IMG/VR virus record: IMGVR_UViG_3300032893_000017
Coordinates: 1 to 64,000 of that record
DNA from: a virus
Direction: 5' to 3' (one strand)
Length of the DNA stretch: 64,000 nt
The translations under genes were made by a program, and so were the position numbers. The notes beneath the pieces are model-generated. The model saw nothing but the letters and a program-made list of their open reading frames with translations, had not been told where the DNA came from and ran no database searches. Positions 18,087 to 43,390 of the stretch are shown here, one piece after another; the first letter of the stretch is position 1, and every line of letters starts with the position of its first letter.

Positions 18087-18329
18087 TCAATTTTTATTCT
18101 TTTTTTTCTCTTCCTTTAATTTCTTTAATCTTGCTTCTGCTTTTTTCTTTTCATCTTCTGATCCATGATGTTGTAAATCAGTTAATTTTCCCAGATCTGT
18201 TTCTTTATAGATATATTTGTTTCCTTCCTTGCGAAGATACTTATGACTTCTTGCTTTTAGCATTCCTTGATCATCTAATCCAAAAGACTTGAAGAAGTTG
18301 TTATCTTCATTTAAAAATGGCTGTTCCAT
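18087..18329 (-). CDS. small HKY-tag protein, paralog of 37600..37929
   Basis: N-terminal ~43 aa are highly similar to those of 37600..37929. Confidence 0.7.
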   Translation of the reverse strand: MEQPFLNEDNNFFKSFGLDDQGMLKARSHKYLRKEGNKYIYKETDLGKLTDLQHHGSEDEKKKAEARLKKLKEEKKKNKN

Positions 18330-19906: not shown

Positions 19907-21400
19907 CTACAAATCTATTAATTGATTTCGGATTAATTTGTTGACGCCAATATTTCGGAATACAACAAACCTCAAGGGCGCATAAAATTTTGGCACGCAA
20001 TAAAAATTGACCGTCCCCCATCTGTATGGACCTATTTTTGCATATTCAACTTTGTGAATAGGAGCTAATTGAGCTAAGCTTACGGTTCTCAATTCTCCTG
20101 TTGCAGTCAAGTCCATCAATACAGCCTGTGAAGTTCCAGGAAGGTCTCCATTTAGATCTGTATAAGTTGTCGTTGCTCCTGTTCCCTTCTTTATTGAACC
20201 CATATAAAGAATACTGTCTCCAGTTACATTTGGTGTAGTTCCTCTATATACTTCATAGCCTGTAGGTGCATAAGCCCCACCACCTGAAGTAATTACTATA
20301 GAAATACTTCCACCTGCTGCTACTGCGACAGATTGTGCTGCAGCTGCCATTGATTTCCCATACTGGTTAACAGCAACTACTCTGTAGTAGTATGTTCCTG
20401 CAACTGCCCCACCTGAATCTCCTGATACTGAAGACCACAAAGATCCAATAACGCCTGTATTTGCTGATAGAGTAAATGTTGGAGTTGCTGGTGCTTTTAC
20501 TGAGCTTGCCCCTTCTACAAATGAACCTGGGTTTGAAGTGTCTTTTATCTTTGGAACCCCTTGTGATTCTGGATTTATAAAAATATCTGGCTCTAGTGCA
20601 AAGTCTCCATAGGCGGTTTTTACACCTTTGATTGCATGTCCTAAATCAAAAGCTCCTCCAACTTCTTGCTGGATAAGTCTTTGTTTTGAGGAATCCAATA
20701 TATTTGTAATAGTAGACATAACAGAAAGTGAAGTGTACATCTTGGTTGGTGTACCATAGTTAGCAGCTATTACTTCTGCTCCTAACTTCATGTTGTATTC
20801 TGTTATATTTGCACCTCTTAAATCAAATATATTATTCGGTGCCAGGTTTTTGACTGTAGCTATTACTCCATCAAATGCTGAAGGAATTATAGTAGAATCG
20901 CCAAAGAACAATTGTCTTTCTGTTGTTCTTAATGCTCTCATCATAGATGCCTGAACGTTGATTACTTCTGCATCTGTAATAAGTCTAGCATACTGTAATA
21001 CATCTGAAACTCTCCACAAGGTTCTGATATATTTCATAACAGCATATTTTCTTTGAAATTCTGCATCGTCTTCTTCTGGGTTTTCCATCTGTCCTACAAA
21101 CCCACCTTCTGTTCCATAGCCATCTTGTACAGAATATTCTTCCAATGTACTGAATGCTTTATGAACACCAATGTCTTTGAAGAACTTAAGATGCTTTTCT
21201 TGGAATGTCAACATAGCTAACTGAGTTTCCAAACTCTGTGGTTGTAAGGCACCACCTGCAGCTAAATTAGCTATGTCAGTAACACCCTCTTGAGCTTGTA
21301 ATGCTTTTACAATATCAAGAATTTCTTTCTGCCCTGCCTCTCCGTAATGATTGGACATCAAGCCAATATCATTAAAAAGTTCATTTCCTGCTAAGTTCAT
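19907..21400 (-). CDS. major capsid protein (large-myovirus type) with inserted Ig/FN3-like domain
   Basis: IVKAL...GGALQPQSLE...STLEEY...ERQLFFGDS...FDG motifs; insert AGTYYYRVVAVNQYGKS. Confidence 0.9.
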   Translation of the reverse strand: MNLAGNELFNDIGLMSNHYGEAGQKEILDIVKALQAQEGVTDIANLAAGGALQPQSLETQLAMLTFQEKHLKFFKDIGVHKAFSTLEEYSVQDGYGTEGGFVGQMENPEEDDAEFQRKYAVMKYIRTLWRVSDVLQYARLITDAEVINVQASMMRALRTTERQLFFGDSTIIPSAFDGVIATVKNLAPNNIFDLRGANITEYNMKLGAEVIAANYGTPTKMYTSLSVMSTITNILDSSKQRLIQQEVGGAFDLGHAIKGVKTAYGDFALEPDIFINPESQGVPKIKDTSNPGSFVEGASSVKAPATPTFTLSANTGVIGSLWSSVSGDSGGAVAGTYYYRVVAVNQYGKSMAAAAQSVAVAAGGSISIVITSGGGAYAPTGYEVYRGTTPNVTGDSILYMGSIKKGTGATTTYTDLNGDLPGTSQAVLMDLTATGELRTVSLAQLAPIHKVEYAKIGPYRWGTVNFYCVPKFYAPLRFVVFRNIGVNKLIRNQLIDL

Positions 21401-22164
21401 CTTTTACCTCCTATCCCTCTTTCTATAACTGACAATGCTTTTGGGGAAAGTGCTTGCATATTGTAGTTATACATCTCCCATTTTGAAATCTCCATAGAAG
21501 ATAATTCTCCATCTTGTACAGATTTTAACAGGATGCTCTTAACTGATTCTAAATCTCCTCGTGATGGAACCATTGAACCTGTTTCTTCTCCAAAAGACTT
21601 ATTTAGAATTTGCTCTTTGCTAATCTTACCTTTTACTGGTAATGGTTGCTTTGCTATTTTTTCTACTTCGTCACTTATTGATTTAATAAGTTTAGATTCA
21701 TCCAAAGCAACTTTAGCAAGTGATTTCTGAAAGTCATTATTCTCCTCCAGTGATTTCTGGAGTTGTTCTACTGTATTGGTCAATCCTTCCAATACTTTTA
21801 CAAAGGATTTCAAAACTGGAACTGCGTCGATGATTTCTTCATTTTCTGATACTACATCGTCCAATGATTTTTTCATCTTTCCTTTACCTTTCTCCTCTTT
21901 TTCATCCTCATCATCCTCTCCTTCATCCTCTCCTTCGTCTGTCATTTTTTCTGCCTTCTCTATCATGTTCTTCATTTTTGCTCGCCATTTAGGATCTTTC
22001 ATTTTCTCCTCGTAATCGTCTGACCTTGCTTTAAGGATATCATCAAGATCGTTAATATTTTGTTCTAAAGATTTCTGAAGTTCAGCTTTAGGATCCAATT
22101 GAGCTTGTGTTGAATCTACATTCTGATTCTGAGTTCCTTTAGAATTTGTATTTTGCTCTGCCAT
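21397..22164 (-). CDS. capsid scaffolding protein
   Basis: Acidic coiled-coil protein with about ten xxKS/KA motifs, between protease and capsid. Confidence 0.75.
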   Translation of the reverse strand: MAEQNTNSKGTQNQNVDSTQAQLDPKAELQKSLEQNINDLDDILKARSDDYEEKMKDPKWRAKMKNMIEKAEKMTDEGEDEGEDDEDEKEEKGKGKMKKSLDDVVSENEEIIDAVPVLKSFVKVLEGLTNTVEQLQKSLEENNDFQKSLAKVALDESKLIKSISDEVEKIAKQPLPVKGKISKEQILNKSFGEETGSMVPSRGDLESVKSILLKSVQDGELSSMEISKWEMYNYNMQALSPKALSVIERGIGGKR

Positions 22165-23132
22165 TATATACCTCCATTTAATTTTATTTTTATCAATTGT
22201 GCCTTATTATTAGACAGCAATCGTATAATTTCAAGAGCTTCTGGTTTATTAAACCCTCTAGCAATTAAATAGTTATAATATGATTTTACATCGTTCATAG
22301 AGTTATTCTCAACGAGATCTCTTAGAATCGATGGAAGCATCCTCATTAATTTTTCATAGCTAACTCCTGTAAAGGTTTGTTTTGCAATCCCTCCTTCTAA
22401 TGATTGAGTTTGTATATTCTGTCCACCGGACATCCCTTGAATAGAAGTGGATGTACCAGCTTCTAATGTTTTTAGTATTGAATCGTCTTCAAATGATTTT
22501 ATAAAAGAATTGAAAGAATCAAATTGATATGTATATTTACAGTCACAATTTTTGCATTTAGTTCCTTCTTTACATTGCCCGTTATTGGAACAAGACTTTC
22601 TAAGTGATACTAAAGTATTTTGGTGTATAGCTGTCTGTCTTTTTGTAATTGCAATATGACGCAATGATATTTTAGATATGTTATTTATTTTATTTTTAGT
22701 TATTGGATCTTCTTCAATAGACTTTTGAAGTATTTTTCCTCCAACAGAAGCTCCAAAAACATTACTTCCAGCTTCTAATGCAGGTAGAATAGCTTTCATT
22801 ACATAAGGATTTTTAGCAAAAAGAAAAGCATTACAAATGGGTAACTGTCTGATGTTGTCTATAAATAATTCTTCGGGTTGTCCTATTATAGCTTCACTTT
22901 TTTCCAATTCAGTTTTACCTAAAATCGATTTATGGTCCCAGTCGATATAGCCATCATGCAGAAATGCTTCAATACATTCATTATTAAAAGCTTTTAATAA
23001 TATTCTATCATTTACTCTATCTTTTGTTGGTTCATTGGGAATTATTTCTATTGGGATACGTCCATTCTTTTCTTCTCCTGATTTTCTGAAATTAACTGGA
23101 TATGTATAACTTATATCAATAAATTCTATCAT
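22164..23132 (-). CDS. prohead protease
   Basis: DRVNDRI, GYIDWDH, IIGQP, GASVGG and HIAIT motifs of the phage prohead serine protease family. Confidence 0.85.
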   Translation of the reverse strand: MIEFIDISYTYPVNFRKSGEEKNGRIPIEIIPNEPTKDRVNDRILLKAFNNECIEAFLHDGYIDWDHKSILGKTELEKSEAIIGQPEELFIDNIRQLPICNAFLFAKNPYVMKAILPALEAGSNVFGASVGGKILQKSIEEDPITKNKINNISKISLRHIAITKRQTAIHQNTLVSLRKSCSNNGQCKEGTKCKNCDCKYTYQFDSFNSFIKSFEDDSILKTLEAGTSTSIQGMSGGQNIQTQSLEGGIAKQTFTGVSYEKLMRMLPSILRDLVENNSMNDVKSYYNYLIARGFNKPEALEIIRLLSNNKAQLIKIKLNGGI

Positions 23133-24000
23133 GTAAAATCACCACATAATTTTTTAATTTATTTATTCTTTTTGTTTTAATTCCTTTATTTATAGCTTCT
23201 TGAGATAATTTTTTGCCTTTCTTTTTTTCACTCATTCTTCTAATACTTTCGTCGGTTTCTTTTGTAAGACCTTTTCTTGATGAAGGCATTCCAATAGCAT
23301 TATGACCAGCAATATATAGTCGACCACAAATTTGATTACATCCGCAAAGGCAGGTTTCTTGGGTTTTACCTATTTTTTGCCAGTATTGCTCTTTGGACAT
23401 TCTTGTTCCAGTTCTCCAGGTAGGTTTTCCTTTTTTTGATATACTAAGATTATTTCTATGAATTTCAGATTTTGGTTTACCTTTAAGAGATTTACTTATT
23501 TTATCTCCCCAAGTAACTATTATATTTTTTTTCAATTTACTCATTTTTAGTCTATATTCTTTAGACTCCATAGTTATTTTTCTTTTTTCATTTGCTTCTG
23601 CTCCAAGATTGCCACCTTGACCACCATCAGTAATATTATATAAATCATATCCAGAATTTCTGAAAAGTTTAATAAAATATTTTTCCATAAAATCAGCTTC
23701 TTGTTTTGTTTCTGCTCTTAATATAAGTCTTCTTGAAAAATTTTCTCTTCCATATTTTTTAATAGCATTATTTATTCTAACGCCTGAACCAAGATAATTG
23801 ATATTATCAGCTTTTGTAGTTTGCCCAATATATATTTTTCTATTTGTTTTATTTTCAATTTTATAGATTTTATATTTAAATACTTTTTCTTGTCTTTCTA
23901 TTTCATTTAAACATTGAGACATTTTATTTTCTTCTCTTTCTGATTTGATTAATTCTGCTGGAAAAGAATAAAAAAAAGGCATTGACAAGTCATCTAACAT
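23116..24000 (-). mobile_element. free-standing GIY-YIG homing endonuclease with NUMOD3-like repeats
   Basis: KIYKIENKTNRKIYIGQT, YLGSG, AIKKYG, YNITDGG motifs; repeated (I)SKSLKGK units; CLCGC..GHN. Confidence 0.9.
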
Positions 24001-31234: not shown

Positions 31235-31460
31235 TTATAGTCTCCTTGCCAAAATCTAAATATTCTTGATGAGAATATTCTAAATCTTCTATCATTTGAT
31301 CTATCTCGTCAAGATCATTTTGCAGATTCAACAAAGCCTCCCCGTCAAGCTTCTTTTGTAACTGTAGCATTTTCTTTTTTTGTTCTTTTAGATGTTCCAT
31401 TTGCTTTTCTATCTCTGAATGATTCAACAATGCTAAATCTTTTATATGTTTCACTGTCAT
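31227..31460 (-). CDS. hypothetical coiled-coil protein
   Basis: ORF with ATGA overlap. Confidence 0.55.
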   Translation of the reverse strand: MTVKHIKDLALLNHSEIEKQMEHLKEQKKKMLQLQKKLDGEALLNLQNDLDEIDQMIEDLEYSHQEYLDFGKETINE

Positions 31461-34400
31461 GCTCCTTCTAATGAAGTATCTATGGATGCTAATGTTCTTT
31501 TATATTTTTGTAATTTTTTATTTAGATTTTCTTCATATATATTCGAGAATTTATATGATATAATGTTTGCGTCTTCTTTACGATTACCCCTTGTTATTCT
31601 GCCATCTACCTGTATATCTCCCATCCCGTCAAATAGAGTTCCTACTTTATGGAGGGTGTTTGCCTTCTGAAGGTTATGCCCCGCTACTTGCCCTTTAGAA
31701 ATAAATAACAATCCTGGATTTTCAGAATCATTCCAGTTAAGCTTGTTTTGTATTGCTTCTTTCTTTTTACCTAACATCGAGAATAGTTGTTCTTTAGGAT
31801 ATCCTTTATCTAGCAATACTTTTGTGATATGTTCTTGATGATTTATATCATCAACATATATTACATGCTTCTCATTTATTTTATCAAATATGTTTTTTAC
31901 TAATTGTTTTGTCTTTGGGTTTTTTATTCCATCATATTTATTAGATTCTTTTATTTGTTCTGCTACTAGGTTGTTGATAAATGTTTGCTTTCTTCTTTCT
32001 TCCCAGCTCCCTGGATAAGATTCTTTAAAATATTGAGGAGTGTTTTTTATAAACTTTTTCATCTCTGATTCTGCATTACTTATTTTCTTCTTAAGGTATA
32101 CATTCATTTCAGGAAGCATCTTTGTCTTTTCTAACTTCTTGTTTATTTTATATCCTCTCTTTGTTAGCTGGTCATTAGTAACATAATTGTCTATTATATC
32201 CCTGTAATATTCCTTCATTAGATTTTGTTGTCCAAGATTCATATCTATAAAACTGTAATTTTCCGTCTTTAACATTCCATTGATGTCATACTTTTCTTTA
32301 TCTCCAAATTGTAGTTTAAAGTTTCCTCTTTTTCCAACCCCATCAGGATCGACCCAATTTATAAGATTATATACATCACTTGGATTCTCTTGTATTGGAG
32401 TTGCTGTTAATGCTATTTTATGCTTTGTTTTTAATCCACTTATTATTTCTCTTCCTTTTGTTTTGATGTCTCCATTCTTATCAAAGAATATTTCATGTGG
32501 TTCATCTATAGTAAGATTGTCTATTTTCTTTTTTGATAGTATATCTGTATTGTTTACTAGGTCAGTATGTGAAATTACAAATATATTTCCATTTGCTGAT
32601 GTGTTTTGTAATAGCTTTCTTTTTTGATTCCTGTCCATATCTTCTGGAATTTCTGTTACCTTTAAGTTTGTGTATTTCTTTATCTCATCTACCTGCTGTT
32701 TGACATTCTTATCAGGAATAACCATTACAGTAGAATACTTTGGATCTTTTACTAATTGAGTTGCATGAAATCCTACAGCAATCATTGTCTTACCTGTTCC
32801 TACTCCTCTGCTGATTATACCCTTGCCTCCATTACTGTTTAGAAATTGAACATCATTTCTTTGGTGGGGTTTGAATTTGAATTCAGATTTGAATCCATGA
32901 ATTTTATAATTTGTGTATTCATTACCTTGTTTATCTATTAATACACCTGTGGAATTATTTTTTATTTTATTAAGTTTATCTTTCCTTTCTTTGTCTATCT
33001 TATTTATCTTGATGTAATTTGATAATAAATTAGAACTAAGTACCACTCTATTTTTGAATGGATGTAATTCTAGCTTAGCATTATTCCTGTCTGTGGAGAA
33101 TATCATATTTTTATATTCTATCTTTGCTTTGTCCGGGTCTTTTGAAAGTTCTATATCTACATGGCTTATATCTTTTTCATTTTTTATCTTCTTTAATGAA
33201 TTTAAAAGTTCACTGGTTGACTTTAATAAACCCAAAGAACTTCCAAGGATATTACGCTGCTCTATAAGATTGTCTACTAAAGATCTTTCAGCTTCTTTGT
33301 TGAATACTTTTACTTGAGTAATTTTTGTTCTTAGATTCTGTGCTTCTTTCTTTAAACCTTTTATCTTATCTAGTGCATTATTTTCTATATGTTCTACTTC
33401 ACTTTCAAAATAGGATTCTATATTATCAATGAATTTTTCATATTTGTTCTTATCTAGTGTATTTCTTAAGTGCATAGCCAATAGATTCATAGACTTCTCT
33501 AATCCTATTCCTTCTATAAGTCGCTTGAAGTCCATGTTAATATCTAAGAATTTATTTGTCAGTGCATTTACTTGTCTTGTTCCTGCTTTATTGATAAGTA
33601 AGTTTATATTTGCTAAAGAATCTCCATCACTGAGTTTTGATAATACAGTGTATAATGATTCTGAATTATTTTTATAGCTTATTTTATCAAACCGTTTTCC
33701 TATTTCCTCTACATCTTCTTTTGAAACTTCTAAGCCTTCTATTTTAATGTTCATTAGGTTCTCATATTTTTCTTTGTTTACTTTTTTATATTCCTTTTCA
33801 AATGATTCTTTTTTAGCAAGATTGTCTATATATTGTTTTGTTTTCTTTCTTATTTCACTTTTATTTTCTAATGCTTGTTTGTCTAATCCAGAATTGAATG
33901 TTATTTTTATTCCTTCTTCATTATTAAGTTCATTCTTTACATCATTAACAAGTTCCAATCCATAATGATATTCATTTGGGATGTTTACATATAGTTCGTC
34001 CTTCTTATCTGTCTGTACTTCTTTGTAGTTTGCCAGTTTGTTGCAGTCTTTTATTTTACTTTGTTTCTTTCTTCTTAATACTTCTGATAATACTGTTTGT
34101 ATAGTTTGTTCCTTTTGCTCTTCAGATAGTTTATCATTCTTGTCTAGATTTGTTTTTAATTTTGTAGCAATGGATTCTAGTTCTTTATTTTCCTTTTCTT
34201 TGTTTGTTACTTCTTTTAACACTGCTCTTCTAGAGTCTTTTATTGATTTGTCTATTTCTTTTCTGGTTTCTTTTTTCTTTGTTTTTATCTCTTCTTTAAT
34301 TCTTACTTTTTCTAATTGTCTTTCTGTAAGCTGTTTTTCTTCTTTGGGTTTTTCCAATTTGTCTTTCTTAGCATTTACTTTGAAAGTAAGATGTGATTTT

Positions 34401-35191
34401 GTTTTATCAAATTGAATATTATAACCTGCATTTCTAGCTGCTTGAAAGTCTACTGCAAATTTCTCACTACTATATCTTGTAATAGGAATATGTCTTCCTT
34501 CAATTGTCACCCATACTGTTGCCCCTATTGGAATAGAATGAAAGTCTATTCTTCCTTCTGCTGTTAATTTAGGTTTAATAAAAGCTTTCAATAATGTCAT
34601 TGATCTAGGGTTAAAGGATTTCTTTATATTCTCTCTTGCTACATCATCAATCAATTTAAATCCACAAGCACAATTATTTCTCAGCATCTCTAAATAACTC
34701 TTGTCAATTATCATTCCTTCTATATACCATTTGAATATGGTTGCAAACACCTCTTTTATATTGCTGCTTGTATGCTCATTTAAAAATAAATGATTCTTTT
34801 CTTTTCTTATTTGTATTCTCAATTTATCCAGCTTAACTTTTACAATTGTATTGTTGTCTAATCCCCATTTATGAAACATCATGTGACCCAACTCATGTAA
34901 GCAGTCTGATCTAAAGTCTGGAGAGTGTTCATACAATATAATTATATTTTCATCCAACTGTGCTCTGTCTAATTTATTGTCTTCTTTATTCTTGTATAAG
35001 TGTATTATTATAGGTTGCTTTAAATTAAGAAATGATTTTATTTTTGTAAGTAAAGGTTCCAATTCTTGTTTTACTCTGTTACCTTCTTGCCGTTTCCATT
35101 CTATATTGTCTATGTGAATGTTTTGAGATTTCTGCAATTTATTTTTATTTAATATTTTTATATCTTTTTCTTTCCAAAGAAATTTATTCAT
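31457..35191 (-). CDS. polyvalent protein: zincin-like metallopeptidase + SNF2/SF2 helicase
   Basis: LHELGH...EVFA; GVGTGKT, IDEPH, LTATP, GHNLQ, QVDGRITR. Confidence 0.8.
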   Translation of the reverse strand: MNKFLWKEKDIKILNKNKLQKSQNIHIDNIEWKRQEGNRVKQELEPLLTKIKSFLNLKQPIIIHLYKNKEDNKLDRAQLDENIIILYEHSPDFRSDCLHELGHMMFHKWGLDNNTIVKVKLDKLRIQIRKEKNHLFLNEHTSSNIKEVFATIFKWYIEGMIIDKSYLEMLRNNCACGFKLIDDVARENIKKSFNPRSMTLLKAFIKPKLTAEGRIDFHSIPIGATVWVTIEGRHIPITRYSSEKFAVDFQAARNAGYNIQFDKTKSHLTFKVNAKKDKLEKPKEEKQLTERQLEKVRIKEEIKTKKKETRKEIDKSIKDSRRAVLKEVTNKEKENKELESIATKLKTNLDKNDKLSEEQKEQTIQTVLSEVLRRKKQSKIKDCNKLANYKEVQTDKKDELYVNIPNEYHYGLELVNDVKNELNNEEGIKITFNSGLDKQALENKSEIRKKTKQYIDNLAKKESFEKEYKKVNKEKYENLMNIKIEGLEVSKEDVEEIGKRFDKISYKNNSESLYTVLSKLSDGDSLANINLLINKAGTRQVNALTNKFLDINMDFKRLIEGIGLEKSMNLLAMHLRNTLDKNKYEKFIDNIESYFESEVEHIENNALDKIKGLKKEAQNLRTKITQVKVFNKEAERSLVDNLIEQRNILGSSLGLLKSTSELLNSLKKIKNEKDISHVDIELSKDPDKAKIEYKNMIFSTDRNNAKLELHPFKNRVVLSSNLLSNYIKINKIDKERKDKLNKIKNNSTGVLIDKQGNEYTNYKIHGFKSEFKFKPHQRNDVQFLNSNGGKGIISRGVGTGKTMIAVGFHATQLVKDPKYSTVMVIPDKNVKQQVDEIKKYTNLKVTEIPEDMDRNQKRKLLQNTSANGNIFVISHTDLVNNTDILSKKKIDNLTIDEPHEIFFDKNGDIKTKGREIISGLKTKHKIALTATPIQENPSDVYNLINWVDPDGVGKRGNFKLQFGDKEKYDINGMLKTENYSFIDMNLGQQNLMKEYYRDIIDNYVTNDQLTKRGYKINKKLEKTKMLPEMNVYLKKKISNAESEMKKFIKNTPQYFKESYPGSWEERRKQTFINNLVAEQIKESNKYDGIKNPKTKQLVKNIFDKINEKHVIYVDDINHQEHITKVLLDKGYPKEQLFSMLGKKKEAIQNKLNWNDSENPGLLFISKGQVAGHNLQKANTLHKVGTLFDGMGDIQVDGRITRGNRKEDANIISYKFSNIYEENLNKKLQKYKRTLASIDTSLEGA

Positions 35192-37592
35192 TAATTACCT
35201 CAACTTCCAATATTGTTCTTCCTTTTTTACTTTTATATTTTTTTTTAATTTTAAATTTCATTCCATCTATTGCTAAAAATTCCATTTCTATACTATTAAA
35301 TCCCATTGAAACTATTCCACTATCATTTATCCTTCTTAATGCAGGAGCAACTTTACTTCCTTTAGGAAAAGTAATCTCCATTAAAGCCCCATTTTCTGAT
35401 TCATGTTTTGCAAAAGTAAAAGCAATAAATTTATCTCCTGTCCAAGAACTAAAAGATGGAGATTGAAAAATATCTCCCTCTTTTAAATCTTCTGTAAATA
35501 ATTTTCCCATTACTCCTCTATAAACAATAATATTATTTTTTAGTGGGTTATTATTTATATAATTTCTAATATTTTTTATTTGTTTATCAACAATTTTATT
35601 TGTTTCTTCTAAATCTTTTCCTTTGAATAATTTTCTATCTTTTACATTTAAAAATCTTTCTCTTACATAATCATAAGAATTTCCAGAGTAAGAAGATACG
35701 TCTTCTAAAATCTCTTTATTTTTAATATAAAATTCATCAATATACTTTTTATAATTTTCATTAACCCATTTATCATAATCTTCTTCAGTTCCTAAAAATA
35801 CAGGTTCTTTTTTTATTTCTTTATAAATGTATTCTGCATTCTTGCCTTCACCTATCTTTTTGATATATTTGTGATTTAATCTGCTTGATTTTCTTAATTC
35901 TTTCTTCTTAAAATAGAACTTCATCTCGTCTTTGAACTTCTTCAATGACATTGGTATTATTCCACCAAACATTTCTTTTGTCATTGTTTTTATGTATTTA
36001 CTTTCAAATTCCTGTGCTGTCCCAAATCCTATTCCAAACTTTAATTCATCAAACTTTCCATCTAGCTTTTGAATAAGCATGTAGATTGTACTGTATTGCT
36101 TAATAGGTCTATTGATACATACATCTATATCTTCCCCGTCTGGACTGTCTGTGTTTTTGATATATCCATAATCATATTCCATTAAATTTTTATATGGACT
36201 GCCTGGATATTCCCTTGTTTCTCCTTTTCTCCATTCTATAGCAATATCTAATCCTTTGAAGTTTATTGTTTCTTTTGTTGAATCATTTTTTAATAGGTCT
36301 AATTTTTTATCTCTAAAAGACTTCTCTACTTTCCATTCTATTGCATTTATTTCTGGGTTGTATTGCTGAAACTCTGGATGAAACTCAGACCAAAAATGCG
36401 TGCAGTGAGGATGGCTGGGAATTGCTATCCATTTCTTGCCTATTGCATCCTTTCCTACCCATATATAGTATTCTGCAAATTCGTCATTTGCTATATCTGA
36501 GTTTCTAGACTTTGGAACAAGTAAGCAAACCTTTCCTATCCACTTATTGCATGGCTGATCTGGCTTTTCTTGTTTGTTATATTCACCACTGTATATGAAG
36601 TATTTCTTTTCACCTGTTTTTAAGCTGTCCTGTAACCCTGCTGCTAAATAACCATTGTTCATTGCCATAGATGTTTCTGTTAAGATGATCCTTCTAAGAT
36701 CCCTTTCATATGCCTGCTTTGTTTCGTTTGTTAAGTCTTTTCCTAACTCGTCTTCTAAGTCTACATGGTATAATCTACTTATCATTTCTTGTTTTGACAA
36801 TCCATCTTCCAGCCCACTTACTATATTTTTTCTTACTATGTCTCTTATCTTTGTATAAGCATCTCCCTGTATTGATAGATACTTCGCTGCATTTTCTTTT
36901 GCGAACTTAATTGCTTGTGATAACTGTTCATTTCTATCTATTTCTTTTTTTATGTAGTTTTTGTCATTTATTCTCTCTCCATACTTGTCTACTATATTGT
37001 CATAAGACATTCTTTTCTGTTCTTCTTTGTCAATTCCTTCTTCATCCATCCATTTTAATAGTAATCCAAATAATCCTGCTCTTACTATTGTTTCATCCTC
37101 TAGATCAATATTGTCTTTAAAGTAGTTTACAACATCTTTATTGAAAGACTCCCACTCTGCATTGGTCATTAACTGTTTTGTCTCTGGGTTGTAGATTACT
37201 TTTCCTTTAAATTGAATTGGTTCTAACTTTTTCTTTTTTCCTATTCCAAAGGATTGAAACTTATCTATTGCTTTTTTATACTTGTCTCTAAGTTCTGTCC
37301 ACAAGGATTTCATTAGCAATGCTTCTTCTGTTATTTCACCTTGACTAGCTTTCAATAAATCATACATTGGAAAAGAATAAGACTTTCTTACTGACGAAGG
37401 ATCTACTTCCAATTTTAAACATAGTCCTATCATTATTCCTTCTGTAAGTTCATGAAGATATTCTAACAATGCTAATTGGTATTCTTGTATAAAACGAAAT
37501 TGAGAGAATTCATATTCATCTAGATTCTTTATTGCCTTCTCTAGAATATCAAAAAAGTTATTATTGTATTTTGTAGGAATTCTTAGTTTCAT
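35184..37592 (-). CDS. MuF-like minor head protein fused to inorganic pyrophosphatase-like and ADP-ribosyltransferase domains
   Basis: RDLRRIILTE...C...PSHPHCTH (MuF); IEWRKG...YDYGYI..TDSPDGEDIDV (PPase-like); VYRG, FSSWT, EMEFL (R-S-E ART). Confidence 0.85.
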   Translation of the reverse strand: MKLRIPTKYNNNFFDILEKAIKNLDEYEFSQFRFIQEYQLALLEYLHELTEGIMIGLCLKLEVDPSSVRKSYSFPMYDLLKASQGEITEEALLMKSLWTELRDKYKKAIDKFQSFGIGKKKKLEPIQFKGKVIYNPETKQLMTNAEWESFNKDVVNYFKDNIDLEDETIVRAGLFGLLLKWMDEEGIDKEEQKRMSYDNIVDKYGERINDKNYIKKEIDRNEQLSQAIKFAKENAAKYLSIQGDAYTKIRDIVRKNIVSGLEDGLSKQEMISRLYHVDLEDELGKDLTNETKQAYERDLRRIILTETSMAMNNGYLAAGLQDSLKTGEKKYFIYSGEYNKQEKPDQPCNKWIGKVCLLVPKSRNSDIANDEFAEYYIWVGKDAIGKKWIAIPSHPHCTHFWSEFHPEFQQYNPEINAIEWKVEKSFRDKKLDLLKNDSTKETINFKGLDIAIEWRKGETREYPGSPYKNLMEYDYGYIKNTDSPDGEDIDVCINRPIKQYSTIYMLIQKLDGKFDELKFGIGFGTAQEFESKYIKTMTKEMFGGIIPMSLKKFKDEMKFYFKKKELRKSSRLNHKYIKKIGEGKNAEYIYKEIKKEPVFLGTEEDYDKWVNENYKKYIDEFYIKNKEILEDVSSYSGNSYDYVRERFLNVKDRKLFKGKDLEETNKIVDKQIKNIRNYINNNPLKNNIIVYRGVMGKLFTEDLKEGDIFQSPSFSSWTGDKFIAFTFAKHESENGALMEITFPKGSKVAPALRRINDSGIVSMGFNSIEMEFLAIDGMKFKIKKKYKSKKGRTILEVEVINE

Positions 37593-37599
37593 TGCTTTC

Positions 37600-37929
37600 C
37601 TAATATTGCATTATTGGTTGCATTAATCCATGATTTCTCATCCATACTTCCCTGAATTTTTTACTAAACAGTTTTATCCACTTATGATAGATTCCTTCAC
37701 CTGGATCTGTACCTATTTTCTTTGCTATAGCTTCCCTGTATTGTTTCATAGCAGTAATTTGGTCTTGCATGAATCGATGGAAGGTTTCCTGATCCATATC
37801 TTTTTCTTTATAGATGTATCTATTTCCTTCCTTCCTTAGATACTTATGTGATAGTGCTTTTAATAATCCATTATCTTCTAGAGTAAATGACTTAAAGAAA
37901 TATTCATCGAATAAAAAAGGTTGATTCAT
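37600..37929 (-). CDS. small HKY-tag protein
   Basis: FFKS...LLKALSHKYLRKEGNRYIY plus a short C-terminal domain. Confidence 0.7.
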   Translation of the reverse strand: MNQPFLFDEYFFKSFTLEDNGLLKALSHKYLRKEGNRYIYKEKDMDQETFHRFMQDQITAMKQYREAIAKKIGTDPGEGIYHKWIKLFSKKFREVWMRNHGLMQPIMQY

Positions 37930-37930
37930 T

Positions 37931-40564
37931 CTATTCTCCTTTTTCTATACACTGTAATAATTTATCATAATATTGCTGATCTTTAATTATCCCTTTCTTT
38001 ACTTTATCTTCTGTGTCCCATCTTTTTTTTGTTATTTGTTTTCCCAAAACAAGTTCTTTATCTGAAGTAGACTTAAAAACTAAAGACTTTTGCATCTCCT
38101 GCTTAAATGCTCTCATAAATATATCTTTTAATTTTTCTAAATCACTTTTTGTAAAGTCTGAAAGGCTACCTGTAGGAGCATCTGTTACTCTTACTTCTGT
38201 TTTTTTGTTTTTTAGCAATACATCATGCAATAGCTGATTCCCAAATCTTGCTACCATTTCAGAATCATCCGCGTAATATTTACTATTACTGCTGCTTAAA
38301 AACTTTTGATAAGACTTTGTTTTCTTAACTTCTTTTACAAAAAGAACACGATCTTGATTCCAGATAGGGTTGCCGTCTTTATATCCTAATACTCTTTCTG
38401 TGTAGAACAAATGATGAAAGTATTCGTGAACAAAAGAATTCTTGAATTTAGATCCTATTGTTATACTTTTATTTGAGGGACTGTAAAAAGCTCGTGCTAC
38501 CTTATTATAAGAAATCTGTGCATAATCTTTTTGAAAAGATATTGATAAATTAGTGTGATTTGCAAAACCTAAATCTTTTAAAAGTTCTAATTGATACATA
38601 ATATTACACCATGCTTTTTTATTTTCAGGTGTAATATTATTTTGGATGCTTACTTTGAAGTTCTTATTAGCATAATCATACATTTCCTCTATTTTCATTT
38701 TCTCAAATTTTTTTATAGAAATCATTTTTTCAATATTCTCTAGAGTTTCATTTTCTTTCTTATCTGTCTCTTCATAAATATATTTTGCATTCTTGCCTTC
38801 ACCTATCTTTTTAATATACTTATGATTTATCTTTGATTTAAAGAATACTATTTGAGTTCCAATTGACTTAATTAGTATATCTATCTTTTCCATAATTGCA
38901 TTTATTGGTTGATCACTCTTAATCATTTCTGAATACTTGCTTCCTATTTCTTTTATCTTTTTGAGTATTTTATGCACCATTACTGGAGATATTTTTATTG
39001 CTGTTGCTATTTCTTTTCCTGTTTGCTTCTTTGTTAAAAGATCTACTACTTTCTTTTCATTCTTTGTTTTTAATTCTGATTTTATTTTACTTAAAAAGTC
39101 TTTTACGTTTTTAGTTCTTTCCTTCTGTTCTTGTTCATACTGTTCATTTGTTTTGTATTCCTTTGATATTAAATCTATTTTATCAATATCACTTTCTACA
39201 TTCTCGTCTAATGCAGGTGTATTAAGAATCTTTTCAAAACGTTTGTCTAGAATGTTGTCTCTGTCCACTCCCTGTATACCTACATACTCTCCAGTTTTAG
39301 GGTCTTTTATTTCTCCATGCTTCATATATCCTTTTATGTAAGTGTATAAGTAAGTAGAAAAAGTATTTGGAGGATATTTTTTAAGATTGAAATTTCTTAT
39401 TGCATGTATCATTCCCAAATTGCCATTTTGATATGCATCCTCTACATCTATCTTTCCCGTTTCATAATCCATAAGAAGATTTTTATTACGCTGAATTACT
39501 GCTGTGATATATTTTTGATTCTCTACAATAAAATTAGCTCTTGTTGCCCTATCTTCTTTTAACGTATTTATTTGTTCTGCTGATATATTGCCTATATTTA
39601 TTCCTGTTCTAAGTGTATATGATTTTCCTTCCTTTGTTATTCCTTCTACTATCTTTCCACTTTCATCTCTATACCAATATCTGTAATTTCCTTTACCTCC
39701 CTGTCTACGAATGTATTTATGTCCAGATTTCATTATTCCAGTAATATTTTTGATAAGATTGAAAAATCCTAGTTTAATTGACTTTGCCATCTCCAAAGCA
39801 TGTTGTTTTACTACAAACTCTTTTCCTGCTTCGTCTACTAATTTTACTATCCCGTCTTTTATTTCTTTTATTGTAGCAACTAATCCTCTTCCTTGGTGTT
39901 GATGAATACCTTCTTTTGATTTTGCATCTGGTTTGATTCTAACTTTTGCTCCTATTTTAATTTCTGGTTTTTGTTCCCCGTCTTTCTTTTGTGTTGTTTT
40001 CTTTTCTGCATACTGTTTTGCTTTTTCATAGTCATTTGTGATTTTTGTTTTGCCATCCCAATAGAAACCATCTTTGAATTCCAATCCTTCTATTCGTTTG
40101 GGTTCTTGTTTAGCCTTAGGCTGGTCACCTTTAGCTTCTTCATAAATATATTTATCACCTTCCTTACGAAGATATTTATGAGACATTATATTTTTAAAAA
40201 AGACTAAATTAACTTTTTTTTTTAAGTCTGTTAAAGATTTTAAGAAGCCTATTATTACATTTGGTTTAGATTTTTTTGTTAGTCCTGCTTCTGAAAGTGC
40301 AATCGCAATAGCCTGCTTTCTATTCGTAACTTTATCACCACTTCCAGACCTTAGTTTCTTTCTTTTAAATTCCCCCATGACAACATGCACCTTGTCTTGT
40401 TTGTTTTTTAGCTTTTTTCTTTTCTTAGCTCCAGCACCTAATTTATCTGGGTGCTTGTATGCTTCTTCTACTGTCATTTTTTCTGCAGCATCTACAATAT
40501 ACTTTGGAAGTGCTTCCTGTTCGTTTCCTATTTTGGATTTAATTAAAAAAACTAATTTCGTCAT
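37931..40564 (-). CDS. polyvalent protein: DUF6496-like + KOW-like + sigma70-family factor + zincin metallopeptidase
   Basis: KVHVVMGEFK...RKQAIAIALSEAG; VEDAYQNGNLGMIHAIRNF...FSTYLYTYI (region 2); TGKEIATAIKISPVMVHK (region 4 HTH); FVHEYFH...EMVAR. Confidence 0.8.
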   Translation of the reverse strand: MTKLVFLIKSKIGNEQEALPKYIVDAAEKMTVEEAYKHPDKLGAGAKKRKKLKNKQDKVHVVMGEFKRKKLRSGSGDKVTNRKQAIAIALSEAGLTKKSKPNVIIGFLKSLTDLKKKVNLVFFKNIMSHKYLRKEGDKYIYEEAKGDQPKAKQEPKRIEGLEFKDGFYWDGKTKITNDYEKAKQYAEKKTTQKKDGEQKPEIKIGAKVRIKPDAKSKEGIHQHQGRGLVATIKEIKDGIVKLVDEAGKEFVVKQHALEMAKSIKLGFFNLIKNITGIMKSGHKYIRRQGGKGNYRYWYRDESGKIVEGITKEGKSYTLRTGINIGNISAEQINTLKEDRATRANFIVENQKYITAVIQRNKNLLMDYETGKIDVEDAYQNGNLGMIHAIRNFNLKKYPPNTFSTYLYTYIKGYMKHGEIKDPKTGEYVGIQGVDRDNILDKRFEKILNTPALDENVESDIDKIDLISKEYKTNEQYEQEQKERTKNVKDFLSKIKSELKTKNEKKVVDLLTKKQTGKEIATAIKISPVMVHKILKKIKEIGSKYSEMIKSDQPINAIMEKIDILIKSIGTQIVFFKSKINHKYIKKIGEGKNAKYIYEETDKKENETLENIEKMISIKKFEKMKIEEMYDYANKNFKVSIQNNITPENKKAWCNIMYQLELLKDLGFANHTNLSISFQKDYAQISYNKVARAFYSPSNKSITIGSKFKNSFVHEYFHHLFYTERVLGYKDGNPIWNQDRVLFVKEVKKTKSYQKFLSSSNSKYYADDSEMVARFGNQLLHDVLLKNKKTEVRVTDAPTGSLSDFTKSDLEKLKDIFMRAFKQEMQKSLVFKSTSDKELVLGKQITKKRWDTEDKVKKGIIKDQQYYDKLLQCIEKGE

Positions 40565-41812: not shown

Positions 41813-43390
41813 TTATATTATAATAGTAATATATTCCTTTTTACTTTTTTCTAATTCTTCCTCATTTATTTCAAATTGAGGTTCTTCATTTTCTTCTTTT
41901 TTATCATTTCCAAATTGCTCTTGCTGGCTTTGTTGTTGGGACATTTGATCTTGTTGTATCTTCATCTGGCGTGCTTGTAGAAAAGTAGGGTCTAATATTA
42001 TCTTTCCTTCTCCATCTGGAAGAGGAGGAAGATCTTTTTCTGCCCGTAATTCATCAATAAGTAAATAACTTTTTACTCGTTTATCGTCGATTGCAACTTC
42101 CTCAGTCTGATTCCTTGCTTCTAGTCCAGCAGGTTCTATAATGAATTTGTCCCATTCTTTATCTTTGTTTTGCTTTGCTAATACTTTATTATATACTTCA
42201 CATAGATTTGACATTATATATTTCAATCCACGATCATGACTAAATGCTATCTTCTTGTCTGCATTTTCATTCATAACATTTTGTGACTGTACTAGCCTTA
42301 TTCCTAATTCTTGACTGTCTGTTCCATGTATTGCAAATATCCAACTTGCTAGCATCTGTATATATTGATTGAATTCCATGTCCCTGTTTGATGGAGCTAT
42401 GCTTTGCCACTTTGCATTGTACTGCAAGAATGGAGTCTTCCACATTCCTTTTATCCCTCTAAACATGGATATCCATTCTCTTTGCAGTTCTTCTAAATCT
42501 TTTCTATCTAAATTCTGTCCATCAAATGTTAATATCCCTTTTGGCTGGCTTGAAGTATTAAAGAACTCTTTATTGTATGACATTCCAAATAGCCAGCTTG
42601 TTATTATGTCTATACACATTTCTATAAAGCTGTATCCGTAATCTCTTTTCCTTATGTCTGCTCTCATATTTGAACAGTAAAATACCATTTCCTCTTCTGT
42701 AAATGTTTCTGTTATCTTACTGTCTATCTCCTGAACATACTTTATTTCTTTATCACCCAGGTATCCTGTCTTCTTAACTGTCTTCTTTATTGTAGTTCCG
42801 TCTAACAGCCAGTAGTCTATCATTTCTCCTTTTCTGTTTCTTCTAGGTGTAATTGCTACTTGATCTATTGTAAGTATTTCCCTTACCATCATCTCATTCA
42901 TTCCAACTAAATGATCTTTCCTTTCTTCTGCTTCTGGAAAATCTATATAACCACTATATAGGATAAACTGTCCTATCTCTTCTGCTATTTTTTGTTCTTT
43001 CTTGTCTGGGGTTCTTTTTCTGTCTTTTAGTTTTACTACAAATCCTAATTCATCGTCGTTGTATGATATTCTTGCTGCATTTCTTATTTGCATACTTCTC
43101 AAGTTGTGAATAGATGCTATAGGACCTACTTTCTGTGCTATGTCTCTTAATACTTCAAAACTTAAATTGAAGAATCTTTCTCTTATTCCTCTGGCATTGA
43201 TGCTCCATCTAAAGAATGTTGGATCTGGTTCATAAATTCCCTGTGGTGGATTTATACTTCCTCCAGACTTAGACTTTCTTAGTATCTCTGTGTCTATACT
43301 TTTTTTGAATTCTTCTAAATCCCTGTCTATATCTATTGGAGTTGGTTCTAAATAGTCTTTTAATTTGTTTAATTCGGAAAGGTTAGCCAT
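41813..43390 (-). CDS. portal protein
   Basis: YG.S.IE, YNKEFF...PKGIL, DMEF, IDELRAEKDLPPLPDG motifs. Confidence 0.9.
   Translation of the reverse strand: MANLSELNKLKDYLEPTPIDIDRDLEEFKKSIDTEILRKSKSGGSINPPQGIYEPDPTFFRWSINARGIRERFFNLSFEVLRDIAQKVGPIASIHNLRSMQIRNAARISYNDDELGFVVKLKDRKRTPDKKEQKIAEEIGQFILYSGYIDFPEAEERKDHLVGMNEMMVREILTIDQVAITPRRNRKGEMIDYWLLDGTTIKKTVKKTGYLGDKEIKYVQEIDSKITETFTEEEMVFYCSNMRADIRKRDYGYSFIEMCIDIITSWLFGMSYNKEFFNTSSQPKGILTFDGQNLDRKDLEELQREWISMFRGIKGMWKTPFLQYNAKWQSIAPSNRDMEFNQYIQMLASWIFAIHGTDSQELGIRLVQSQNVMNENADKKIAFSHDRGLKYIMSNLCEVYNKVLAKQNKDKEWDKFIIEPAGLEARNQTEEVAIDDKRVKSYLLIDELRAEKDLPPLPDGEGKIILDPTFLQARQMKIQQDQMSQQQSQQEQFGNDKKEENEEPQFEINEEELEKSKKEYITIII

Follow-up and report, generated by a model that had tools for sequence, protein, structure and literature searches.

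How do giant multi-domain proteins enter a phage capsid, and how are their domains set free? For polyvalent proteins, capsid entry and domain separation have so far been conjecture, and a 2017 paper suggests zincin autoprocessing for the separation (PMC5512222). A locus of an uncultured phage, in the IMG/VR virus record IMGVR_UViG_3300032893_000017 (97,318 bp, with direct terminal repeats) bears on this question. We analyzed the first 64 kb of the record (64,000 nucleotides, the window, to which all coordinates refer), which has a guanine-cytosine (GC) content of about 29% and almost all of its genes on the minus strand. Three large open reading frames (ORFs), PV1, PV2, and PV3 (31457-40564), lie in the head-morphogenesis neighborhood downstream of the portal gene, and each was found to join at least two disparate effector domains, as polyvalent proteins do. 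The initial annotation had proposed that they are packaged into the head and cut into separate enzymes at a lysine motif that also occurs in the capsid, scaffold, protease, and portal proteins, with a recurrent HKY motif as an exchangeable tag for packaging or ejection. As argued below, the lysine motif is very likely the code of the head protease and, judging from sequence, the giant PV proteins probably travel in the head as cargo, to be split into pieces and injected.

Distribution of the lysine motif in the genome

The motif is written here as phi-x-K-[SA], where phi is a hydrophobic position, and a slash marks the predicted cut, as in FLK/S. Along transcription, the head block runs through the portal gene, four small ORFs, PV1, orf109, PV2, and PV3; after 7 kb of small genes and a GIY-YIG gene follow the protease, scaffold, and major capsid genes and, further downstream, orf80.

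41813..43390, minus strand: portal protein (Pfam Phage_portal, 1e-18), with FKK/S and LRK/S at the N terminus and LEK/S at the C terminus
37931..40564, minus strand: PV1, 877 residues, described below by Pfam domains, cut sites, HKY coordinates, AlphaFold2 (AF2) model, and block boundaries
37600..37929, minus strand: orf109, with a long leader, HKY at 37810-37848, and a small helical domain
35184..37592, minus strand: PV2, 802 residues, with a Pfam InPase domain, ADP-ribosyltransferase (ART) and Phage_Mu_F matches below cutoff, and cut sites
31457..35191, minus strand: PV3, 1244 residues, with a Pfam SNF2 domain and weak zincin matches
22164..23132, minus strand: head maturation protease, 322 residues (phrog_1028), with 7 phi-x-K-[SA] sites
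21397..22164, minus strand: scaffold protein, 255 residues, with 10 phi-x-K-[SA] sites, adjacent to the capsid gene
19907..21400, minus strand: major capsid protein of SPO1 type (phrog_752, 3e-88; PDB 9vel, 2.5e-43)
18087..18329, minus strand: orf80, with a long leader, HKY at 18207-18245, and a K-rich tail, among the head-completion genes downstream of the capsid gene

The motif lists given in the initial annotation for the capsid (IVKA), scaffold (about ten copies; 10 were found), protease, and portal proteins proved correct. To judge these numbers, expected counts were taken from within-protein residue shuffles. The scaffold holds 10 phi-x-K-[SA] sites against 1.2 expected, the protease 7 against 1.1, the HKY-bearing proteins 21 against 7.4, and the five cargo ORFs together 30 against 11.7, whereas the other 132 ORFs show no excess (73 observed, 78 expected). 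The expectation that the motif would be commoner in these proteins than elsewhere in the genome was therefore borne out. With serine alone after the lysine (phi-x-K-S), the counts are 8 against 0.8 in the scaffold, 5 against 0.65 in the protease, and 23 against 6.7 in the five cargo ORFs (z 6.5), with 37 against 44.7 in all other ORFs. The motif had been proposed with S, A, or N after the lysine; the S/A part stood, being enriched, but the phi-x-K-N variant showed no enrichment over background in the shuffles.

Since the shuffles show this excess but none for three control patterns (phi-x-K-[TG], phi-x-R-[SA], and phi-x-E-[SA]), the lysine motif is not an effect of composition, and a compositional artefact was rejected as its source. 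Position points the same way as number: a phi-x-K-[SA] site lies within the first 36 residues of 9 of 9 head or cargo proteins and of 7 of 130 other ORFs (Fisher p 3e-10).

The lysine code in the SPO1-type lineage

The capsid protein is about 28-30% identical to those of Herelleviridae and of Leptospira LE1-like phages, and its match in PDB, 9vel, is SPO1 Gp6.1. Its predicted maturation site, I-V-K32/A33 (21302-21313), aligns with V-V-K24/S25 of the Twort-like capsid protein in PDB entry 5lii (463 residues). The chain in PDB 9row has the same sequence, counts 439 residues, and begins at S25, so the mature Twort-like capsid protein starts directly after K24; the cut position is taken from the numbering offset between 5lii and 9row, and a literature search for the Herelleviridae cut site found no direct statement of it. 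The pattern D-L-x-K-A occurs at capsid residues 26-33 in all six related genomes.

Five independent relatives, with GC contents of 31-64%, show the same motif pattern as this genome. Immediately upstream of their capsid genes lies a gene with 8-14 sites, where about 1.2 would be expected (z 6-11.4); their proteases carry 2-7 sites, and the HKY proteins are enriched (z 1.9-6.3). In SPO1 (FJ230960.1, 41157-44097), the scaffold gp3.3 has 11 phi-x-K-S sites against 1.1 expected and the protease gp3.2 has 5 against 1.0; the capsid protein carries L-N-K/A at residue 21, and the portal protein LSK/A and LEK/S near its N terminus. Because the K/[SA] motif is enriched in six genomes and SPO1 and is homologous to a solved capsid maturation site, we read it as the head-protease code, as had been proposed, and on these sequence comparisons this is very likely. 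The same pattern in the six genomes and SPO1 means that the lysine code belongs to the whole lineage; on its own, a code of this kind is nothing unusual for the head proteases of SPO1-type phages.

The breadth of the motif also bears on a different account of the polyproteins, in which their own zincin-like domains (HEYFH in PV1, HELGH in PV3) process them before packaging or after injection and the lysine motif has nothing to do with the head protease. Metallopeptidase autoprocessing has been proposed for polyvalent proteins, with P1 DdrB cited (PMC5512222), and the two HExxH motifs come with weak M78/ATLF matches. Those zincin assignments are, however, sub-threshold, and many site-bearing HKY proteins have no zincin. 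Above all, in six genomes and SPO1 the motif abounds in the scaffold and stands at the capsid maturation site, none of these depending on zincins; because the motif is common to scaffold and capsid, zincin autoprocessing is the less likely source of the cuts, and we regard it as improbable.

The protease itself matches phrog_1028 (head maturation protease) weakly, at 2.6e-5, but the same family is matched by 5 of 5 syntenic orthologues (best 9e-53), and D38, H67, and S129 are invariant across the protease and its orthologues. A search of PDB with the protease profile gave nothing significant, and tblastn against cultured phages gave no meaningful match. Its seven phi-x-K-[SA] sites are probably sites of self-processing. 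Residues 221-250 (22383-22472) copy the capsid N-arm just after the cut site (K-A/T-..-A-G ... G-G-x-x-x-x-Q-S-L-E), the protease profile weakly matches residues 20-71 of SPO1 Gp6.1 (E 0.82), and one protease orthologue matches phrog_752, the major head protein. This capsid-like stretch in the C-terminal part may draw the protease into the prohead. The start of the protease gene is overlapped by a GIY-YIG homing-endonuclease-like gene (23116-24000; phrog_314, 1e-28), which together with the 7-kb block of small genes (24-31 kb) sets the cargo genes apart from those for protease, scaffold, and capsid.

A related code was seen in Leptospira phage LE1 (BX571876.1, 13136-25828), where F-x-K-[SG] occurs at 6 sites each in the protease and scaffold homologues and also at capsid residue 49. 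A 1971-residue 'putative methylase' of LE1 begins with ..FIK/G, and the first 50 kb of LE1 contain no strict HKY module. Virion proteomics of LE3 and LE4 (PMC6078989) concerns phages other than LE1 and is uninformative here. For the locus as a whole, megablast against cultured phages gave no match, and relatives sought through the portal protein amounted to two distant loci only.

Predicted cut sites at the joints of the cargo polyproteins

The domains and predicted cut sites of the three large proteins are arranged as follows.

PV1, N-terminal half: leader MTKLVFLIK/S, DUF6496 (residues 53-93), linker, HKY-1, small fold and SH3-like barrel, linker, HKY-2
PV1, C-terminal half: sigma-70-like factor (region 2 at residues 361-415, then a helix-turn-helix), linker, HKY-3, HEYFH zincin-like domain (residue 713), tail
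PV2: leader ..LEK/A, MuF-like region (sub-threshold), VEK/S, InPase (residues 439-557), LRK/S, HKY, ADP-ribosyltransferase (residues 607-797)
PV3: leader ..LQK/S, HELGH zincin-like domain (residue 99), IKK/S and LLK/A joint, long K- and E-rich region, SNF2 (residues 742-1232)

The multi-enzyme composition that had been suggested was confirmed by Pfam for DUF6496 and sigma70_r2 in PV1, which also contains an HExxH motif, for InPase in PV2 (PF18823, 1.5e-21, above cutoff), and for SNF2 in PV3 (1.4e-20, above cutoff). The ART of PV2 falls just below its cutoff (1.3e-4; 21.8 against 23.4 bits), and the zincin-like domains HEYFH of PV1 and HELGH of PV3 gave weak, sub-threshold matches to M78/ATLF.

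In PV1 and PV2, every phi-x-K-[SA] site lies outside the Pfam envelopes. Residues 100-330 of PV1 were modeled by AF2 with 15 homologues (mean predicted local distance difference test score, pLDDT, of 69); the model places FLK/S, FFKN, LIKN, and IMK/S, that is, four of the five site blocks, in stretches with pLDDT of 42-51, while MAK/S abuts the end of a fold. The linkers that carry the sites lie between folds with pLDDT of 88-95, and both HKY units of this region are modeled as beta-hairpins. The cut sites are thus predicted to fall in flexible linkers and hence to be accessible. The clustering of the motif noticed in all three large proteins holds for PV1 and PV2 in the sense that sites lie outside the Pfam envelopes; in PV3 the excess is modest (9 sites observed, 4.3 expected).

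The joints of PV1 can also be compared with the ends of other proteins. In local BLAST searches of the fetched relatives, P0031, P0033, P0143, and P0144 start (at their residues 1-4) at PV1 residues 118-120, and the C termini of several DUF6496 proteins align to about PV1 residue 98. By these alignments, the linkers of PV1 correspond by homology to the natural ends of other proteins. Of these, P0031 and P0033 stand alone and have the form leader-HKY-...-HKY-sigma. A homologue search with the whole of PV1 gave domain-level matches only, each covering at most 18% of it, and no full-length homologue; as far as these comparisons reach, PV1 is a mosaic of cassettes.

Several of the cassettes deserve separate description. 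The sigma-70-like factor (38915-39730, PV1 residues 279-550; region 2 at 3e-6, above the Pfam cutoff) lies between two cut-site linkers, and its stand-alone homologues P0031 and P0033 bear the same leader and HKY header; if injected, a sigma factor would be unusual. PV1 residues 207-259 (39788-39946) form a small, confidently modeled beta-barrel (pLDDT 88-92), and a Foldseek search with PV1 residues 100-330 gave weak SH3/Tudor/eL21-like and B. subtilis YorP matches (E 2e-3 to 1e-2). In PV3, residues 225-286 (34334-34519), after the zincin-like unit, give a weak Pfam match, at E 0.017 and under the cutoff, to the anti-CBASS 2H phosphoesterase Acb1. DUF6496, which is small and basic, is N-terminal in PV1 (40286-40408) and extreme C-terminal in the HKY-bearing proteins P0088, P0143, P0144, P0145, and P0148; it could serve as a second anchor or address at the protein end. 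The ESM Atlas look-alikes of orf109 were noise.

Copies and distribution of the HKY hairpin

The pattern HKY[LI][RK][RK]xG..YxY was sought in a six-frame scan of the whole 97,318-bp genome. Exactly six copies were found, all on the minus strand, with their H codons at 18245, 35873, 37848, 38824, 39721, and 40180; these are the six copies that had been noticed in the initial annotation, and there are none elsewhere. Besides those of orf109 and orf80 listed above, they are:

40142..40180, minus strand: HKY module 1 (PV1 residues 129-141), after FLK/S (residue 107) and FFKN; predicted hairpin with pLDDT of about 63
39671..39721, minus strand: HKY module 2 (PV1 residues 282-298), after MAK/S (residue 259) and IMK/S (residue 277)
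38774..38824, minus strand: HKY module 3 (PV1 residues 581-597), after MIK/S, LIK/S, and FFK/S (residues 547-576)
35823-35873, minus strand: HKY module of PV2, between LRK/S and the ADP-ribosyltransferase

AF2 models module 2 as a three-stranded mini-sheet (pLDDT 71-84) with a linker of pLDDT 43-51 upstream. In an alignment of the six copies, F, K, H-K-Y, G, Y, and Y are invariant. Near-identical DNA had been noticed in two copies; the third copy of PV1 (38767-38829) and that of PV2 (35816-35878) are in fact 89% identical over 63 nt, with a perfect run of 26 nt, and this degree of identity suggests that they were exchanged recently.

A profile of the six copies, a survey that the initial annotation had called for, matched 130 protein cluster representatives (E <= 1e-3) among 1.84 billion proteins, many of them with 2-4 HKY copies. 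A word-indexed protein search gave 28 HKY proteins, and the core-only DNA pattern HKYI[KR]RxGxPG found 40 IMG/VR stretches, all of which continue into the full Y-x-Y-x-Y. Among 185,579 species genomes the HKY pattern gave 7 matches, of which 2 are real modules, both on contigs of metagenome-assembled genomes; these bins are assigned to Flavobacteriales and Bacteroides, a hint at possible hosts. With HKY-2 of PV1 and orf109 as queries, tblastn found no module match among 50,697 cultured phage records; no Pfam model, LPD families included, covers the hairpin, and a literature search for HKYI and HKYL strings gave nothing relevant.

The domains attached to HKY in these proteins include MuF, ART-PolyVal, M90, LPD1, DUF5661, S-adenosylmethionine (SAM) lyase, SNF2, Zeta toxin, HD, 2H/Acb1, RNA ligase, ParB, NUDIX, RelA/SpoT, and kinase-PolyVal; a clear MuF domain is present in 5 of 58 other HKY proteins. 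The view of HKY as an exchangeable module carried by many unrelated effector domains is supported by these sequences. Capsid proteins of the same family as that of this phage are encoded on 9 of the 10 large HKY-bearing contigs, the tenth being a 41%-complete fragment, and an HKY gene abuts the protease gene in three related genomes (G001, G003, and G005).

Association of cut site and hairpin

Each of the six HKY copies is preceded within 1-4 residues by K-[SAN]. Over 156 modules, the upstream logo shows L/I/F at -6 (68%), K at -4 (57%), A/S at -3 (57%), and G/S/N at -1. Because the profile behind this set also spanned the upstream region, the test was repeated on a core-only set, in which phi-x-[KR]-[SAG] occurs at most 12 residues upstream in 24 of 41 modules; random positions within these ORFs gave 3.9 +/- 1.8. 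The upstream K[AS] persists in a set blind to that region, and an artefact of the search profile was therefore rejected. In seven of the sequences (L009, L011, L017, L018, L040, L042, and L043) a lysine stands directly before the histidine (E-phi-K-HKY); in this subgroup the cut may be displaced, or the protease may prefer another residue at P1'. The small proteins P0093, P0095, P0097, and P0122 carry a header ..S-A-K-G-T-S-W-x-x before HKY in place of a phi-x-K-[AS] leader.

Leaders at the protein starts fall into two types. A long leader, M.QPFL.[DE]..FFK/S..L.D.G.LK/[AS], is common to orf109 (FFK/S and LLK/A), orf80 (FFK/S and MLK/A), and 16 other proteins. Other leaders are short, for example MKLVFFK/S and MNYIILEK/A, and a few proteins start almost at HKY, with leaders of 3-5 residues. 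As the leader either ends in K/[AS] or is nearly absent, the hairpin would come to lie within a few residues of the N terminus either way. This leader pattern is our best argument that the N-terminal position of the hairpin matters, and we take the predicted cut site and the hairpin to form one cassette.

Could the cassette serve without any cleavage of the cargo? Then phi-x-K-[SA]-x-x-HKY would be a structural or docking unit, for example a pseudo-substrate for the protease or scaffold, and the other sites would be by-products of helical linkers rich in K and S. K at -4 and A/S at -3, at a fixed distance from H, would suit such a unit, as would the modest enrichment in PV2 and PV3. Against this, sites also occur far from HKY, in leaders and in untagged joints, the spacing from site to HKY varies over 1-7 residues, many linkers have two sites, and the linkers are predicted to be flexible; moreover, control patterns of the same composition are not enriched. 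We find a purely structural or docking role very improbable.

The leaders raise another alternative, in which cutting by the head protease is real but HKY acts after cutting as a nucleic-acid anchor that ties each effector to the phage DNA, both in the head and inside the host, loading being the task of the leaders and MuF. Basic and aromatic residues dominate the hairpin, its presence once in each released fragment points to a function that follows the cut, orf80 consists of the hairpin and a K-rich tail, and DNA 'piggy-back' anchors have been described (PMC5512222). The capsid propeptide ends in KEILDIVK/A, to which leaders such as KEILEIDSDLFK/A are similar, and by analogy with T4 they could be the true loading signal. 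However, proteins whose leaders count 3-5 residues would on this view lack any signal for loading, and a generic DNA binder would not need to be tied to one capsid lineage, as the module is on 9 of 10 contigs. As to the hairpin itself, which is basic, anchoring to DNA and loading agree with the data about equally well; the alternative as a whole, with loading left to leaders and MuF, seems to us rather unlikely.

A model for the cargo and its limits

The explanation that we favor, and hold to be probable as a whole, is that these proteins are internal cargo of an SPO1-type head, cut by the head protease and headed by HKY. It is built on the motif statistics, the homology of the capsid site, the location of the predicted cuts in linkers, and the range of proteins and genomes that carry the module. 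From these we infer packaging, cleavage, ejection, and a partner for the tag, in the following way. PV1, PV2, orf109, orf80, and, less certainly, PV3 would be internal head cargo that enters the prohead along with the protease, the portal, and the proteins of scaffold and shell. Cuts after the lysine of phi-x-K/[SA] would be the work of the head maturation protease: it would degrade the scaffold at its 10 sites, take 32 residues off the capsid protein, trim the portal and itself, and cut the cargo polyproteins at their flexible joints. About ten proteins would be released, among them DUF6496, SH3-like, sigma-70-like, two zincin-like, and MuF-like proteins, a pyrophosphatase, an ADP-ribosyltransferase, and an SNF2 helicase. 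Most fragments would carry the basic and aromatic beta-hairpin HKY..RR.G..Y.Y, starting 1-4 residues from the new N terminus. The hairpin would most likely hold the fragment in the head, on scaffold, shell, or DNA, and leave with the DNA at infection, and the portable unit of cut site, hairpin, and effector would recombine freely.

A more far-reaching version, which we regard as possible but doubtful, is that phi-x-K/[AS] with HKY forms a lineage-wide, portable address label for the cargo of SPO1-type heads, a header of about 25 residues that would cause any enzyme bearing it to be loaded, released by the head protease, retained, and injected.

Several observations weigh against the favored explanation. 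PV2 and PV3, each taken alone, show modest enrichment of the lysine motif (p about 0.02). HKY is absent from PV3 and from the DUF6496, MuF-like, and InPase segments; with PV3 and several segments lacking it, HKY cannot be the sole loading route, so that the proposed tag held up as an exchangeable module but not as a universal one. One tag per fragment could also reflect the history of the cassettes rather than function. About 40% of the core-only modules have no clear phi-x-K-[SAG] upstream, and alternative upstream contexts occur, with E-phi-K directly before H or M-R-x-x. The match of PV2 residues 252-336 to Phage_Mu_F (PF04233) is sub-threshold (E 0.012; 16.7 bits against a cutoff of 29.6), and BLASTP of the PV2 N terminus against one MuF-bearing HKY protein gave nothing. 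Finally, the AF2 model of the protease (pLDDT 44) was too poor for a structure search, which leaves its fold unconfirmed.

Comparison with known systems

For the polyvalent proteins of Iyer 2017, packaging, processing, and entry into the host along with the DNA were predicted, the processing being done by embedded zincins or, rarely, by C-terminally fused assemblin-like peptidases (PMC5512222). They share with this locus giant proteins near portal or MuF genes that join InPase, ART, SNF2, zincin, and MuF domains. That paper describes no lysine code shared with scaffold and capsid, no HKY hairpin, and no sigma factor, the words 'HKY', 'linker', and 'sigma' having 0 occurrences in it (PMC5512222). 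The prohead protease of SPN3US, a phiKZ-like giant phage, cuts many internal or ejected head proteins, gp245 among others, at a defined motif (PMC10052503). This, together with long propeptides that are cut at several sites there (PMC10052503), resembles what is proposed here, but the phiKZ-like protease lineage and motif are different, and what is described there is loss of propeptides, with no splitting into enzymes and no retained tag. The polyvalent class, the idea of packaged and processed cargo, and the processing of internal proteins by head proteases (T4, phiKZ-like phages) are already known, and the lysine code is that of SPO1-type heads; new here are the proposed division of polyvalent proteins by this code and an HKY hairpin that would stay on the products as a portable header.

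In T4, the internal proteins IPI-III and Alt carry a capsid targeting sequence that is removed by the prohead protease gp21, and they are ejected with the DNA. The T4 cut code, [LI]-x-E/, is used on capsid and scaffold as well, and the cargo includes an ADP-ribosyltransferase. T4 has one protein per cargo and a signal that lies upstream of the cut and is discarded, whereas here several predicted cargoes are strung together in polyproteins with phi-x-K/[SA] sites, and a conserved hairpin lies downstream of the predicted cut and would be retained. Conserved leaders upstream of the cut do exist here, as a T4-type signal would have it; the most conserved element, HKY, is downstream, and some proteins are nearly leaderless.

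The SPO1- and Twort-like Herelleviridae share the capsid family, the gene order of protease, scaffold, and capsid, and the K/[SA] code, but SPO1 has no polyvalent protein between portal and protease, as far as the head block was inspected. The cargo-loading peptides of encapsulins are short, portable, and C-terminal and bring diverse enzymes into a shell of HK97 fold, with no link to proteolysis and no injection of the cargo. With HKY they offer the analogy of a portable loading peptide only; no sequence similarity is claimed.

Significance

This locus and its relatives give a concrete, testable rule for polyvalent proteins, namely, joints with the lysine code of the head protease and most pieces headed by one conserved hairpin. 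SPO1, which is cultured and tractable, is available as a positive control for this code. If the rule is true, cargo would be predictable from sequence alone, and the hairpin would be a short tag to try for loading proteins into phage heads in laboratory systems. It would also explain how a single lineage of phages brings a changing set of counter-defense and takeover enzymes (sigma factor, ART, SAM lyase, Acb1-like, SNF2, and others) into the cell at infection. If, moreover, cut site and hairpin do act as an address label, they would be the phage counterpart of encapsulin loading peptides, and PV1-like polyproteins would amount to effector cartridges assembled in advance, with a sigma factor for injection among their contents.

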